In this document: one piece after another, positions 12,051 through 56,365 of the stretch
Layout: each line of letters opens with the position of its first letter
How positions within the stretch are numbered: the first letter of the stretch is position 1
Assembly: GCA_963715305.1 (NCBI GenBank)
Contig: CAVQSB010000019.1
Location: 19,072 to 83,071, forward strand
DNA: 64,000 nucleotides
Reading direction: 5' to 3'
Origin: an uncultured Actinomycetota bacterium
Lineage (GTDB): Bacteria; Actinomycetota; Acidimicrobiia; Spongiisociales; UBA4744
Program-made: the position numbers and the translations under genes
Notes under the pieces: generated by a model
What the model was told of the DNA's origin: nothing
The model's input: only the letters and a program-made list of their open reading frames with translations
Database searches by the model: none

Positions 12051-12861
12051 CGCGAACCACCGTTAAGAGCCGCTGCGGGCGAACCCCTTCGGGGGTTCCG
12101 GCCGGTGGAACGACCGGCGGAGCGGTGATGGTCGTGGTGCGGCCCCCCGGAGCCTCTGAAGCAGGTTCGGCAGCTGACGCAGCCGCCGCCGCCGGCGCAA
12201 CCACCGCAGCGGCTCGCGACCGCCGCGCAGGCTGCGGAGCCGCCGGAGCAGGCTCAACAACCGCGGGAGCGGGCGCTTCCGCGGCCGGTTCCGAAACCGG
12301 AGGACTCGGCGTCCCCCGGTCATCTCCGCCAGGATGTCCTCAACCGGACGACCGGTCGCCTTGGCCTTCGCCTCCGCCGAACGGCGCAACAACGCCTCAG
12401 GAATCTTCGACGCAGCCGCAGCCGCCGCCGGCGCAACCACCGCAGCAGGCTCAACAACCACCGGAGCAGGCTCAACCGCCATCCAGCGAGCACCGGTTCC
12501 GAAACCGGAGACTCGGCGTCCCCGGTCATCTCCGCCAGGATGTCCTCAACCGGACGACCGGTCGCCTTGGCCTTCGCCTCCGCCGAACGGCGCAACAACG
12601 CCTCAGGAATCTTCGACGCAGCCGCCGCCGCCGCCGGCGCAACCACCGCAGCAGGCTCAACAACCGCCGGGGCGGGCTTCGACAACCGACAAGCGCGGGT
12701 TGTTCGACATCGGCCGCTGGTTCGGCGGGTGCCTGCTGAGGCGCAGCAGCCATCTTTCCCAGCGCGTTCTCGCGAGCTGCGGCCTCCCGAGCCTGAAGAT
12801 CTTCGGGAATCGTCGTGCCGGGCGTGTCGGCGCTCACACCGCCGGAGACTTCCTCAATCAA
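12047..12861 (-). repeat. Coding tandem repeats: a copy ending near 12290 and two near-identical 206-bp copies at 12291..12496 and 12497..12700, each encoding AAVVAPAAAAAASKIPEALLRRSAEAKAKATGRPVEDILAEMTG, preceded by a divergent copy (TTIPEDLQAREAAARENALGKM); the frame is broken between copies
   Basis: ORFs 12334.. and 12540.. (plus strand) start with 42 identical residues, so the period is 206 nt. Minus-strand ORFs 12063..12482 and 12320..12685 both contain the identical peptide. Copy A reads cgtcccccggtc and copy B reads cgtccccggtc, a homopolymer-length difference. Confidence 0.65.
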
Positions 12862-50232: not shown

Positions 50233-50389
50233 GTTAAGTCCGACCTAGTGATTCTCGACCAGATTGTTAAGGCAAGACATAACTGTAACGACCCGGTTCC
50301 GTCCCCACTAAGGCCGAAAGACCCATATTTCCCCCTCTCGCCGGCGGGTGGGGGCGAGGGGGAGGGTGGAAGGCTATTCGTCGAGGGTC

Positions 50390-51439: not shown

Positions 51440-52220
51440 TCTCCGGCCAACCGGTGAAAGGCGATCGCCGCGGCGTGGCCGACATTCAGCGAATCGAAGC
51501 CGGCCGCAATCGGAATCCTCACCAGCCGGTCGGCCTGCGCCAGCGTGGCCGGACGCAGGCCGGCGCCTTCCGCACCCAGCAGCAAGGCTCGACGGGATTC
51601 CTCGTCGACCGGGAGATCGTTGATGGAGACCGCCTCACGATCCGGGGTGAGCGCCACGAGTTCAAACCCGGCCCGGCGCACGACTTCGAGATCTTCTGGC
51701 CAGCCGGCCAGCCGCAGGAAGGGAAGCTGGAACACCGCCCCCATCGATACCCGCACGGTCCGGCGGTAGTACGGATCGGCACAGGTCGGGTCGAGCAAGA
51801 CCGCGTCGACACCAAGCGCCCGGGCGCTCCGGAAGATGGCTCCGAGGTTCTCCGAATCGTTGAGGCCTTCCAGAACGACCAGCGTCCTGGCCGTCTTCAC
51901 GACGTCGTCCAGGGCCGGCTCGGGCAGCCGCTCCGCCGCCGCAACCACCCCGCGATGCAGTTTGAACCCGGCCACCTGGTTCATGACGGCCGGCCCGACG
52001 ACGAAGACCGGGACGTCGAGGGGCGCCAGGTCATCGGCGAGTTGCGGGTAGCGGGCCGGGGTGATGAGCACACTGCGAACCGGGTGGGAACCGGCCAGCA
52101 ATCGCCTGACCACCTCGAGACTCTCGGCAATGAAGTAGCCGCCCGCCCGTCGCAGCTCCGCATCGGTCAGGTGGAGGTAGTCGCCAACGCGCGGATCGGC
52201 CGGGTCGTGGATCTCGATCA
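51440..52220 (-). CDS. TrmH/SpoU-family RNA 2'-O-methyltransferase (stop not found in frame; the ORF runs on into the galE region)
   Basis: MIEIHDPADPRVGDYLHLTD N-terminal pattern and the SpoU motifs LVVLEGLNDSENLGAIFRSARALG and LLLGAEGAGL...LVRIPI...DSLNVGHAAAIAFH. Confidence 0.6.
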
Positions 52221-52324
52221 TGGTGGCCACGTCATCATCATGCCAGCAGGCTCCTAAGATTCCCGGCTCTCCCCAGGAACCCTCCATAACCACCGACGCT
52301 CCAACATCAACCAGCAACCGGCTC

Positions 52325-53170
52325 ATGATTGTTCTGGCGCAGCTGGCGGTCTACGTGATCTGGGGCTCCACCTACCTCGCCCTCCGCTACATGGTCGAGG
52401 GCTTTCCACCCTTCCTCGGTAACGCCATCCGGATGCTGATGGCCGGGGCCATCCTGTATGTGTGGCTGCATGTCCGGGGGAAGGCCGCCCCCACGATGCG
52501 CCAGTGGCGGAACGGGTTCTTCGTCGGTTCGCTGCTCTTTGTTGGCGGACTCGGGTTGGTCACCACGGCGGAAGGGATGGGGGTCGGGTCGGGGCTGGCC
52601 GCCACGGCCGTCGGTATGACCCCGGTCTGGGCGGCCGTCGTCTCCGGCTTCTTCGACAGGTGGCCGACCAGGATCGAATGGGTCGGTCTGATCATCGGCA
52701 TCGTCGGGGTGGTGATCCTGTCACAGGAGGGCGACTTCGATGCCCTGCCCCTCGGGCTCTTCCTCCTGATCCTGGCCCCGCTGCTGTGGGCCATTGCTTC
52801 GGTGTGGTCCAACCACATCAATCTGCCGACCGGTTCGATGTCGACCGCGGTGCAGATGCTGGGTGGTGGTCTGGCCCTTGTGCCTGGCCGGCGCAGTGGC
52901 CGGTGAAAGCATCACGGCCGCCCCCAGCGCGAGAGCCTGGTGGGCCCTCGTCTACCTGATCGGGCCAGGATCACTGATCGCTTTCAGTGCCTATGCCTAC
53001 CTGTTGCGGACGGTGCGCCCGGTGCTGGCCACCAGCTACGCCTACGTCAACCCGGTGGTAGCGGTGGCGCTGGGCGTGACGCTTGGGCAAGGAAACGCTC
53101 ACCGGCGAAACCTGGATCGCCCTCCCGCTCATCCTGGGAGCGGTAGCGCTGATCGCCCGCGGCCGCAGCT
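52325..53170 (+). pseudogene. EamA/DMT-family transporter, 2 frame changes (about 52870, 53095)
   Basis: MIVLAQLAVYVIWGSTYLALRYMV... in the first EamA domain. The second EamA domain (ALVYLIGPGSLIAFSAYAYLL...SYAYVNPVVAVALGV) is in ORF 52794.. and the C-terminus in a third frame. Confidence 0.55.
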
Positions 53171-53604
53171 GACCTGCCAGATTCTACCTTCACAAATGCC
53201 GCGGATTGCGGTAAAGTACCCACTACCAGTGGTGGCTTGGGAGGCCCGACTGAGAGCGAGCCCGCCTGATGCAGACTGCCCTGGACTCCAACCACGACCT
53301 CACCGGTTCGGCTTCTGCCATCGCCCTCCAGCGCGACCTCGGCTTGCAGATGCGTCTCTTCCCCCGTCACTCCACCGAGGGTGATCAGACCGAAGTCGAC
53401 CTCCGGGTCGCCGACGACCTGGCCGGGATGTACTACATCGGCTAGTGGTCTGTCGTTGAAATGGTGCCGCGGTGTCGGCGAGCCATTCGGCTTCCTGGCA
53501 AGGACGCAGGACGACGGCGCACCCGGTGCGGTGCGTCGAGGACGAGGACGCAGCCAGGGGCGGCGAGGGCCGTCGAGACTGTCAGCCATTTCTGCGACGG
53601 GCCG

Positions 53605-54886: not shown

Positions 54887-55369
54887 TTACCGAGCGGTGC
54901 AACCCGGTTCGTTGATTACCCGGTTTAGGTCACAAACGACTTGTAGACGGCCCAGGTTGGATCGGTCTTGGCGATCACGTGGACCTGGTGGGTGGTCACG
55001 GAAGCCTGCATCGCCTCGTGAAAGGCCTCCGAGCCACGCACTCGAATGGCTGTACAGCACGAACTCCCGCATCCCGCCGGTCGTGATCACTCCGGCCAGA
55101 ACGCTCCGCTTGTCGGCCTTCCGCAGGACCGTCGCCTCGATCTTCCCGAGCTGTTCATCTTCGTCGGGCGTCGGGAACCCTTCCGGAGTGGGATCGTTCA
55201 GGTGGATCGCCACCCCAACCTGTATCGAGTACCGCCCAATCAGCTGCTCGGCACTGGTATCAAACCGGGCAATCAGCGGCTTCTCGTCATACGTCCCGGA
55301 AACAATCATCCAAGACCCCTCGAACGTCACCTCCCGATGCGCCCTTCTCCGAAAAAAGGCCATACCCAA
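54887..55369 (-). CDS. DUF695-like protein (C-terminal part possibly frame-changed)
   Basis: KPLIARFDTSAEQLIGRYSIQVGVAIHLNDPTPEGFPTPDEDEQLGKIE resembles DUF695 N-terminal signatures (from memory). Confidence 0.35.
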   Translation of the reverse strand: MGMAFFRRRAHREVTFEGSWMIVSGTYDEKPLIARFDTSAEQLIGRYSIQVGVAIHLNDPTPEGFPTPDEDEQLGKIEATVLRKADKRSVLAGVITTGGMREFVLYSHSSAWLGGLSRGDAGFRDHPPGPRDRQDRSNLGRLQVVCDLNRVINEPGCTAR

Positions 55370-55379
55370 AGGATAAACG

Positions 55380-56365
55380 GTCGAGCCTCAGCCTCTCCCG
55401 CCGGGCATCCTGCCTCCCCTGCTTGCGGGGGAGGCGCGACGCCGCCAAAGGCGGCGGCGCGGAGGGGGAGGAGCGAAGCGAGCAGGCGTGGCAGCCACCA
55501 CGCGACAGAGCCCTTCCACCCTCCTCCTAACCCCCCTCCCGCCAGCAGGAGGGGGAAAGGAAAAGCCCCCCATTCTTGCCTCGCCCGCTGGCGGGAGAGG
55601 CGCGGCGCCGCCAAAGGCGGCGACGCGGAGAGGGTGGAGCGAAGCGACAGGGAGGAAGCCACCGCCACGAGCAAAGCGAGCGAAGAGGCCGGGCCCAACC
55701 GCGCCAGCAGACCGATCAAGGGTCTTGAACCCGGCCGGGTCCTGCGATACGACAGTCACCATGGCAACCGACCGAGACCCCTGGCTGATCGTCCGGGCGA
55801 AGCAACTGCGCACCAACCAAACCAGTGCCGAGACCGTCTTGTGACATCAGGTGCGAGCCCGGCGCTTGGCCGGGTTTCGCTTCCGGCGGCAACACCCGAT
55901 CGGTCGCGTACGTGGTCGATTTCGTCTGCCTCGAAGCCCGCCTGGTGATCGAGGTGGACGGCCCCACCCACGAAGACCCGCAGCCGGGACGAACGACGAG
56001 ACCAGAACCTCGCCTCCCGTGGCTACGCGACCCTCCGCTTCTGGAACGAAGACGTCTACGACAACCTCGACGGAGTCATCGAAACCATCCTCAACACCCT
56101 CGTTCCACCCTCCCCCTAACCCCCTCCCGCCAGCAGGAGGGGGAAAGCAACGCACCCCGTCCCAGCCTTTCCCGCAGCCATTCTTGCCTCTCCTGCTCGC
56201 GGGGGAGGCGCGCGGCACCACCGGCGGCGGCGCGGAGGGGGAGGAGCGAAGCGAGAGGCGCGTAGCCGCCGAAGGCGGCGAAGCGGAGAGGGTGGCAGCG
56301 ACCACGGGACAGGGCCCTTCCACCCTCCCCCTAACCCCCTCCCGCCAGCAGGAGGGGGAAAAAGA
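55380..56365. repeat. GC-rich palindromic repeat cluster: three copies of ccttccaccctcc(t/c)cctaacccc(c)ctcccgccagcaggagggggaaa (about 55511-55560, 56098-56147, 56316-56365) plus two to three copies of a gcgggggaggcgcg.cgccgccaaaggcggcggcgcggagggggaggagcgaagcgag module, flanking a coding remnant
   Basis: Direct visual repeat detection. Each unit holds hairpins (ccccctcc-N8-ggaggggg; cgccgcc-aaa-ggcggcg). Spacing is irregular, so it is not CRISPR-like. Confidence 0.6.
55752..56120 (+). pseudogene. DUF559 (Vsr-like PD-(D/E)XK endonuclease-domain) gene with a TGG-to-TGA nonsense codon in the conserved LW motif and 2 frameshifts
   Basis: MATDRDPWLIVRAKQLRTNQTSAETVL-TGA-HQVRARRLAGFRFRRQHPIGR | YVVDFVCLEARLVIEVDGPTHEDPQ | RDQNLASRGYATLRFWNEDVYDNLDGVIETILNTLVPPSP-stop. 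This matches the DUF559 consensus aErlLWrhLR...FRRQhpig.yivDF.c...rLviEvDG...D..L...G..vlRf.n.dv (from memory). The stop codon lies inside a repeat unit. Confidence 0.55.

Follow-up and report, generated by a model that had tools for sequence, protein, structure and literature searches.

A DUF559 nuclease gene set between BoxC-type triplex-motif repeats in an uncultured actinomycetotal genome: a probable selfish cassette with ORF-less derivatives

Introduction

Repeats described under the names BoxC, PIT or triplex motif have been catalogued since the 1990s. The plan of these intrastrand triplex motifs includes a pyrimidine arm, a loop, a purine arm, a short linker and a mirror G-run (Holder et al., 2015, PMC4666352). 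Two types are distinguished in Escherichia coli by their linker, TTA in type A and CCG(G) in type B, and type A faces type B at five E. coli sites (PMC4666352). The loci carrying triplex motifs are unusually rearranged among strains and are hot spots of rearrangement; the origin of the motifs and the mechanism of the instability were stated as not known, and no mobility function was ever found nearby (PMC4666352). In this work we describe a nest of such repeats around a gene of the DUF559 family, predicted to encode a Vsr-fold PD-(D/E)xK nuclease, in a 64,000-nt stretch of DNA (referred to as the window) from an uncultured Actinomycetota bacterium (assembly GCA_963715305.1, contig CAVQSB010000019.1, positions 19,072 to 83,071). 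The nest is probably a tandem of three units of a selfish nuclease cassette which has repeats as its termini and derivatives lacking the open reading frame (ORF), analogous to repetitive extragenic palindromes (REP) and REP-associated tyrosine transposases (RAYT).

The DUF559 family is very large, with 5,890 proteins obtained at E<=1e-10 from one search, and we know of no established function for it. Experimental work on a DUF559 protein consists of one study, that of Caulobacter VsrA, which is functionally linked to the ScmA cytosine methyltransferase, is SOS-induced and causes an SOS response when the cytosine methyltransferase is absent. In the 25 papers mentioning DUF559 that were searched, it is not linked to repeats.

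Results and Discussion

Repeat modules and the three-unit nest

An earlier note on this locus, made by a model from the sequence, had described a DUF559 gene bracketed by three copies of a hairpin element and by copies of a second module, with its stop codon inside one of the repeats. These observations are correct. The hairpin CCCCCTCC-CGCCAGCA-GGAGGGGG, with its 8-nt loop, has exactly three copies (55532, 56120 and 56335), none being expected from 100 shuffles. The second module, CGCCGCCAAAGGCGGCG, is present three times at two or fewer mismatches (0.05 expected) and belongs to a 74-nt module, of which there are three complete copies and a partial one. The TAA stop codon of the gene lies inside a copy of the arm that we call H1, where it serves as the linker between the C-run and the hairpin. 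Mapping of the modules by a regular expression search and by repeat families D1-D4 resolved the nest into three tandem units, E1, E2 and E3, each running from a hairpin and a G-run to a C-run and a hairpin, with the gene in the middle unit (Table 1).

Table 1. Features of the repeat nest and of the related solo repeat, in window coordinates.
Feature	Position	Strand	Basis or detail
Unit E1, ORF-less	55392-55558	+	regular expression map, repeat families D1-D4
E1 half Y-arm	55392-55405	+	
E1 hairpin a, GCCTCCCC-TGCTTGC-GGGGGAGGC	55412-55435	+	
E1 hairpin b, AAA loop	55436-55460	+	
E1 G-run GGAGGGGGAGGA	55461-55472	+	
E1 GCGAAGC mini-hairpin motif	55473-55479	+	followed by spacer
E1 C-run	55515-55527	+	
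E1 hairpin d	55532-55555	+	
Unit E2, ORF-bearing	55572-56146	+	left arm H2, leader, DUF559 gene, right arm H1
E2 left arm (H2)	55578-55638	+	hairpin a 55578-55601, hairpin b 55602-55626, G-run GGAGAGGGTGGA 55627-55638
Conserved 5' block, AAGGGTCTTGAAC-N17-GATACGA	55716-55758	+	5/5 close relatives; ends 6-7 nt before ATG
DUF559 frame (Vsr-fold PD-(D/E)xK nuclease)	ATG 55762 to TAA 56118-56120	+	Pfam PF04480 on repaired protein; three-piece translation
E2 right arm (H1)	56104-56143	+	C-run TCCACCCTCCCCC 56104-56116, TAA stop/linker 56118-56120, hairpin d 56120-56143
Unit E3, ORF-less	56166-56361	+	ends 8 nt before DNA ligase stop codon (56369, minus strand)
E3 half arm	56166-56179	+	
E3 hairpin a	56186-56209	+	
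E3 hairpin b	56210-56233	+	
E3 G-run	56234-56245	+	
E3 duplicated hairpin b	56260-56284	+	
E3 second G-run	56285-56296	+	
E3 C-run	56319-56331	+	
E3 hairpin d	56335-56358	+	
Solo degenerate H1-type triplex motif, CCCCCTCTCGCC-GGCGGGTGGGGG-CGA-GGGGGAGGGTGGAA	50326-50371	-	nhmmer E=3.9e-10

The left arm, H2, consists of hairpin a (pyrimidine and purine arms), hairpin b with a GNA-type loop and then a G-run, while the right arm, H1, consists of a C-run, TAA and then hairpin d. Since the G-run is the inverse complement of the C-run, H2 and H1 act as terminal inverted repeats. At 55627-55638, the E2 G-run both mirrors the hairpin a purine arm and forms the inverse complement of the C-run (56104-56116). 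H1 has the arms CCCCCTCC and GGAGGGGG, and its segment GGGAGGGGG is mirrored by a third G-rich segment, GGGGGAGGG; the arms of H2 are either CCTCTCCC and GGGAGAGG or CCTCCCC and GGGGAGG. The mirror pairing of the G-run combines GGGGGAGG copies with GGAGGGGG and GGGAGAGG copies with GGAGAGGG, and the variant of the H2 purine arm (A or G) agrees with that of the G-run in 17 of 18 copies.

The repeats are, judging by their sequence, of a known kind: H1 is a perfect BoxC/PIT/TMECO intrastrand triplex motif and H2 is its long-linker version, a family membership that the earlier note had missed. Read on the other strand, the right arm of E2 consists of CCCCCTCC, the loop, GGGAGGGGG, TTA and GGGGGAGGG(TGGAA), which perfectly reproduces the type A order of Y-arm, loop, R-arm, TTA and mirror G-run, and the TTA linker of this motif is the TAA stop codon of the DUF559 gene. 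H2 resembles type B with the linker grown into a hairpin. The inverted doublets of the two correspond to the A and B doublets found at five E. coli sites, and E. coli doublets that we compared have the same organisation as E1 and E3; in both cases the repeats are intergenic, GC-rich and accompanied by local rearrangement. There are differences as well. The stems here are GGGAGGGGG or GGGAGAGG, not GGGAGAGGG with GGGTGAGGG. The published search rule allows 1-6-nt loops, whereas the H1 hairpin has a loop of 8 nt with a linker of 3 nt (TTA), and the H2 linker of about 25 nt, which forms a hairpin with itself, is outside the published 1-6-nt rule. Finally, neither a gene nor a mobility function is associated with the motifs in the literature, whereas at this and other loci a nuclease gene lies between them. 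No Rfam family matched the window at the gathering score, and only chance-level miRNA-type matches were obtained for the locus at E<=10.

The units can be expected to fold. In 18 H2 copies taken from several genomes 90.6% of the cells of the hairpins pair. Folding was modelled with ViennaRNA, which considers Watson-Crick and wobble pairs only and leaves triplexes outside the model. As single-stranded DNA, E1 gave the four expected helices (hairpin a, hairpin b, a central stem of G-run and C-run, and hairpin d) at -47.1 kcal/mol (z=-3.9), and none of 200 shuffled sequences was as stable. The z values of an ORF-less unit from a metagenomic contig (L015) and of an E. coli BoxC doublet were -5.2 and -6.5. 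The heptamer GCGAAGC is located at 55473, 55639, 56246 and 56278, after the G-run-side linker or ending it in every H2 copy. As DNA, this sequence makes a mini-hairpin of unusual stability.

The stem of hairpin b contains a T:G mispair (GCTGCC versus GGCGGC) in the copies at L006 1260, 1447, 2884 and 3427 and L013 8517; the other copies have T:A or C:G in this position. The mispair is curious, given that T:G mismatches are what nucleases of the Vsr type recognise.

The gene and its arms at other sites

DUF559 genes 64-80% identical to the intact gene, with the same 5' block and arms, are found at unrelated sites in three contigs (L004, L006 and L007) and at the syntenic site in the sister contig L003. 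The L004 gene is located between molybdopterin (MoCo) and radical-SAM genes, the L006 gene between IS481 transposase and ABC-transporter genes, and the L007 gene beside the response regulator gene of a two-component system. In L006 and L007 the order is that of the window, with H2 upstream, the 5' block, and the stop codon in H1; in L004 both H2 and H1 are found upstream, followed by the 5' block, and the stop codon is in a degenerate H1-like arm. No methyltransferase gene was called beside these relatives at unrelated sites. The gene and the arms thus move together to unrelated chromosomal sites.

Units without the gene exist as well. Among 185,579 species genomes the exact 24-mer was found at three loci only, one of which is the syntenic L003; the Novosphingobium locus, a bare hairpin, probably matches by chance. 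Scanning metagenomes for the H1 pattern yielded 13 loci, many of them at contig ends, and most of these H1 copies have no adjoining gene. Some retain pieces of it: L012 has H2, the last 34 codons and H1 (tblastn E=1.7e-7), L009 has about 31 nt and L015 23 nt of the ORF between H2 and H1, and further metagenomic units bear no ORF trace at all. L015 and L016 have a common downstream flank and retain different lengths of the ORF. As the same flank is combined with different ORF remnants, the gene was lost in place, so that internal deletion on the spot turns full units into ORF-less ones. An ORF-less variant with the spacer 'aactgacgactgacaactga' occupies at least five sites in L001, L006 and L014, and therefore ORF-less units also multiply as such.

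In the 64 kb of the window there are four H1 copies, three of them in the nest, and the gene-less units comprise the two in the nest and one solo copy. Gene-less doublets elsewhere in the genome that carries the gene are present in E. coli and in Caulobacter vibrioides. The earlier note had suspected a selfish element, which is supported by the travel of gene and repeats to unrelated sites, by the ORF-less derivatives and by the layout shared across phyla. Its suggestion of a genome-wide dispersal is right in kind, as there is a fourth, degenerate H1 copy 5 kb away (Table 1) and the repeats are present in other genomes, but not in extent, the density being low. As to the alternative of a target for REP/MITE-like insertion (MITE, miniature inverted-repeat transposable element), the repeats are termini of the units and not later arrivals, although the tandem nesting shows that units do accumulate side by side.

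We also considered the gene as a cargo of phages or plasmids. A DUF559 protein is present in 3 of 50,697 phage records and 41 of 72,556 plasmid records, and this rarity rules such an origin out; the exact H1 and H2 patterns gave zero matches in viral contigs.

The same layout across bacteria

Distant homologues with 40-57% identity have the same layout in Bradyrhizobium, in a metagenome-assembled genome (MAG) of Planctomycetota and in Rhodoferax. In Bradyrhizobium the flanks constitute a 57-nt terminal inverted repeat. We retrieved 63 further DUF559 loci and inspected the flanks of 30. When 28 loci were tested for exact inverted repeats shared by the upstream and the downstream flank, the longest one exceeded those of all 30 shuffles in 22 loci (median 16.5 nt versus about 8). 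Relative to the coding strand, the G-run is always upstream and the C-run always downstream, and in many loci only a few bases separate the left arm from the start of the gene. The C-termini of most of 120 homologues, PPSP, PPHP, PHPxLPPQAGEG or SPxPSPASGRGE, are arms in translation. The layout with the gene between inverted arms holds across at least five bacterial phyla or classes.

In C. vibrioides (L093 1040-2340, CP079926; L095) the gene is located between the portal and terminase genes of a cluster resembling a gene transfer agent or a phage. It is preceded by a GAAC-N7-GAAC SOS box and followed by three tandem ORF-less units. Two C. vibrioides strains have different alleles, different arms and different numbers of ORF-less units at the same site.

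E. coli YcjD (b1289) belongs to the same family and is 43% identical to the window protein in the alignment. The window protein scores below the YcjD equivalog cut-off (95.7 vs 218 bits); another difference is that E. coli ycjD has lost any recognisable left arm. In strain KE47 the end of ycjD reads CCCTCACCC-caa-CCCTCTCCC-tgaaa-GGGCGAGGG, which is an inverted type A motif, and in K-12 12 nt of the C-run are lost. A second DUF559 3' remnant and another motif are located just downstream of ycjD (L025 and L092, fabI-sapF region). In E. coli, where 3,378 of 5,426 complete genomes carry ycjD, the fabI-sapF site is occupied by this gene in phylogroups A, B1 and C, ST69 and ST182 and by the eefRABCD operon in phylogroups B2, D, E, F and G. 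This five-gene operon was lost at least twice, ycjD being left each time (PMC12817139). The published TMECO counts are 13-30 in A/B1/C, 1-2 in B2, which lacks ycjD, 10-11 in E and 6-15 in D/F, where the highest count belongs to the ycjD-bearing UMN026. The direction of these counts fits a role for YcjD; the contrasts are few and confounded by phylogeny.

The DUF559 protein

The protein of about 115 codons encoded by the full-length unit, with the frame repaired, matches PF04480 over positions 6-108 of 109 (139.9 bits against a cut-off of 20.6, E=3.6e-41), and DUF559 and MTES_1575 are the only domain matches in the gene. For the structure, an AlphaFold2 model of an 80% identical relative (P0003) was used (predicted local distance difference test score 86.8). 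Among PDB entries the model best matches 3HRL (E=7.4e-9, TM 0.66/0.82) with a Vsr-like alpha/beta nuclease fold. This entry, NGO0050 of Neisseria gonorrhoeae, is of the same family (sequence match E=1.2e-20) and is the only solved relative by sequence; it is uncharacterised. The second Foldseek match is the catalytic domain of I-Bth0305I (PDB 3R3P, E=7.6e-4, TM 0.61-0.72), with Vsr ranking lower (E=0.03-0.09). Among functionally characterised structures the best match of the model is the catalytic domain of a homing endonuclease. The model also matches several large-subunit mitoribosomal proteins of Toxoplasma and Tetrahymena.

Vsr and VsrA share with the window protein the fold superfamily and the conserved D, E/D and H residues; the Caulobacter DUF559 genes have an SOS box and the same arm layout, and VsrA can cause SOS-inducing damage. 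In contrast to Vsr, the window protein does not reach the cut-off of the Vsr model TIGR00632 (19.9 vs 97.85 bits), and no cytosine-5 methyltransferase gene adjoins the window gene. A domain search of the locus found no recognised transposase and no RAYT (HUH/Y1, IS200/IS605-like) domain. PADLOC defence models gave a chance-level DpdF fragment only.

Inactivated gene or assembly artefact

The DUF559 gene described in the earlier note, with TGA in place of the codon for an invariant tryptophan and two frameshifts, is indeed present in the assembly. The TGA is at 55843-55845, where four of four close relatives have TGG in the alignment, and the residue concerned, Trp28, is invariant in 25/25 and 35/35 aligned homologues. 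Relative to the same four relatives, single extra bases are found near 55906 and near 55980, and a third one near 55753 is in the leader. The frame is therefore interrupted by one nonsense codon and two +1 insertions, the latter being within the indel noise of the assembly. The catalytic D, E, D and H are kept (D53, E64, D66 and H70 of the conserved core, W28 being the TGA of the assembly), and no other invariant residue is altered. Apart from the lesions, the window copy differs from the intact L003 copy by 13 synonymous and 9 non-synonymous codons, which argues for purifying selection until recently, so any decay must be recent.

It is quite possible, though in our opinion not the better bet, that the gene is intact in the organism, that the apparent pseudogene stems from errors in a noisy MAG assembly, probably of long reads, and that the element is live. 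L003 comes from an uncultured Actinomycetota MAG, and its flanks are 95% identical to the window; about 35 one-base indels separate the two assemblies over about 6.2 kb of coding sequence in the flanks. The EamA-family gene (52181-53381, plus strand) and the DUF695 gene (54887-55369, minus strand) are frameshifted in the window and intact in L003, while the ligase gene is broken in L003 and intact in the window. As one-base indels hit neighbouring genes in both assemblies, the two frameshifts of the DUF559 gene are not readable as biology and may be assembly errors. Over the 404 nt of the DUF559 stretch there are 5 indel differences, where the flank background would predict about 2.3, and the predominance of synonymous differences together with the unchanged invariant residues is in line with a functional gene. 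On the other hand, three one-base insertions within 230 nt are about twice the local background, and the change of TGG to TGA is a substitution, not an indel, at a residue invariant in all aligned homologues. This substitution is the only solid sign of inactivation. Given a nonsense codon at this position, the window copy may be an inactivated member of its family, but the decay proposed in the earlier note is not established.

The conserved 5' block in front of the gene is possibly a promoter for a near-leaderless mRNA. A scan with the sigma-70 consensus found no promoter at this block or elsewhere in the nest, and an intrinsic terminator scan found nothing terminator-like in its modules.

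Comparison with known mobile systems

The likeness to REP/REPIN-RAYT systems is in the low-copy gene flanked by inverted copies of a dispersed short palindromic repeat and in gene-less doublets which form long hairpins, are intergenic and cluster in tandem. The systems differ in the enzyme, which is here a Vsr-fold PD-(D/E)xK nuclease and not a HUH/Y1 transposase. GTAG or CGTC tags are absent, the repeats are mirror-plus-inverted (triplex-type) instead of simple palindromes, the gene has its 3' end encoded by the repeat, and mobilisation by DUF559 is putative. With MITEs and insertion sequences (IS) the units share terminal inverted repeats and short non-coding derivatives arising by internal deletion, one ORF-less variant being present at several sites. 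However, a recombinase of the DDE, HUH or serine/tyrosine type is absent, the Bradyrhizobium and E. coli copies searched for a target-site duplication gave none, and the arms are conserved across phyla far more than is usual for IS ends.

I-Bth0305I matches at the level of fold, and each of the two is a small selfish gene for a nuclease; the deletion series fits the way in which homing endonuclease genes are gained, decay and are lost in a cycle. The sequence identity is, however, 17-18%. I-Bth0305I resides in a phage group I intron and has an extra DNA-binding region, whereas DUF559 is free-standing, chromosomal and intergenic, has no part beyond the catalytic domain and lies between repeats. 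If the DUF559 gene is of the homing type, the ORF-less doublets would be candidate targets; a cognate empty site was not identified.

A model of the cassette and its alternatives

Each unit has a left arm of a pyrimidine/purine hairpin, a linker with a GNA-loop hairpin and a mirror G-run, and a right arm of the inverse composition. In the full-length form the conserved 5' block and the DUF559 gene lie between the arms, the last codons and the stop being encoded by the right arm. The nuclease is expected to act on the arms, recognising either structure or sequence, and the breaks it introduces might cause the cassette to be copied to new sites or to ORF-less doublets, as in homing or in RAYT/REPIN. 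Later the gene would decay and be deleted, leaving doublets and singlets of the BoxC type. The role assigned to the nuclease, that of spreading or maintaining the units by acting on the arms, is drawn from the analogies with REP/RAYT and homing endonucleases and from the fold match.

A broader proposal, which we make more tentatively and regard as having slightly less than an even chance, is that the enzymes cognate to BoxC/PIT/triplex-motif repeats are the stand-alone DUF559 nucleases, YcjD and those of Caulobacter among them; the repeats in turn would be termini and ORF-less relics or derivatives of pan-bacterial nuclease cassettes. If so, a Vsr-fold nuclease and DNA able to fold into hairpins or triplexes would be partners in the manner of REPIN and RAYT, and the origin of BoxC-type repeats as well as the genomic instability near them would be explained. 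If DUF559 and the repeats are indeed partners, E. coli and Caulobacter allow a direct test of what the family does and of where the repeats and their instability come from. There is also a consequence for annotation, as many DUF559 proteins in databases carry N- or C-terminal tails which are translated repeat arms.

A number of observations weigh against the cassette or limit it. In L003 it is H2, not H1, that comes after the ORF, so the arrangement is plastic; copy numbers in actinomycetotal contigs are low; covariation in the hairpins is modest, with 3 compensatory pairs in 18 H2 copies; and about one fifth of the surveyed loci (L040, L042, L052/L055) have no clear arms. No target-site duplication was found at the clean Bradyrhizobium copy or between the filled and empty E. 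coli alleles, nor was a clean empty site found; the E. coli alleles are related by replacement (112 nt vs 10 nt), not by simple insertion. The correlation of TMECO with ycjD is confounded by phylogeny, and phylogroup E has 10-11 copies without ycjD. The spacers of E. coli BoxC doublets were compared with the 3' end of ycjD as its possible remnants, and the similarity was not significant (p=0.15-0.8). We know of no DUF559 protein with a demonstrated cleavage activity or target. The authors of the VsrA study see in VsrA a nuclease of T:G mismatch repair that is linked with a cytosine methyltransferase.

This last interpretation leads to an ordinary host repair gene, with DUF559 being a Vsr-like T:G mismatch nuclease and the BoxC-type repeats accumulating independently in permissive intergenic spots. 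The functional link of VsrA to ScmA and its SOS induction agree with it, as do the reports of triplex motifs being rearrangement hot spots by themselves, the different module order in the window and its sister contig, which shows that the repeats shuffle locally, and the metagenomic H1 copies, most of which have no neighbouring gene. We nevertheless regard it as unlikely, since independent repeats do not account for the constant orientation of the G-run and the C-run relative to the coding strand, for the arm encoding the stop and the last codons in most of 120 homologues, for the arms accompanying the gene to unrelated sites or for ORF-less copies which keep 3' pieces of the ORF; the failed Vsr model and the absence of an adjoining methyltransferase gene speak against a Vsr-like role as well.

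Still less credible, in our view, is a device acting at the RNA level, in which the arms pair 5' to 3' in the transcript to control the stability, processing or translation of the nuclease mRNA and the ORF-less units are structured RNAs, terminators or insulators. Pairing of the G-run with the C-run would loop out the ORF between stable flanking hairpins, some stem changes are compatible with G:U (UG in 4-5 copies at two pairs), and the gene often starts just past the left arm. But the Rfam search gave no match at the gathering score and the miRNA matches are at chance level, the hairpins are not followed by T-runs, and a purine-motif triplex cannot form in RNA (PMC4666352). The GCGAAGC and GNA-loop mini-hairpins suggest structure at the level of DNA, and an RNA device leaves the spread to new loci unexplained. 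Both the host repair gene and the RNA device are possible, and both explain less than the selfish cassette does.

Neighbourhood of the nest and minor observations

The G+C content of the window is 64%. The nest is located between the DUF695 gene and an ATP-dependent DNA ligase gene, the neighbours being MFS, DUF695 and ligase genes; in L003 the MFS, DUF695 and ligase genes enclose the intact DUF559 gene. The alignment of the window with L003 starts at window position 50362, and the solo H1-type copy on the minus strand at 50326-50371 coincides exactly with this end of synteny. Thus, the repeat marks the synteny break. A comparison of L003 6340-6401 with window 56095-56125 shows the 3' end of DUF559 joined to H2 in L003 and to H1 in the window; the switch falls exactly at the GTT|C module boundary, and both H1 and H2 begin with TTC.

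Two other repeats were registered in the window. At 1192-1390 a 15-nt unit is present in nine head-to-tail copies and would give a five-residue repeat if coding. At 12169-12685 a direct repeat of 159 nt (12314-12472 and 12520-12678, 97% identical) is embedded in GC-rich sequence that also contains shorter related repeats.

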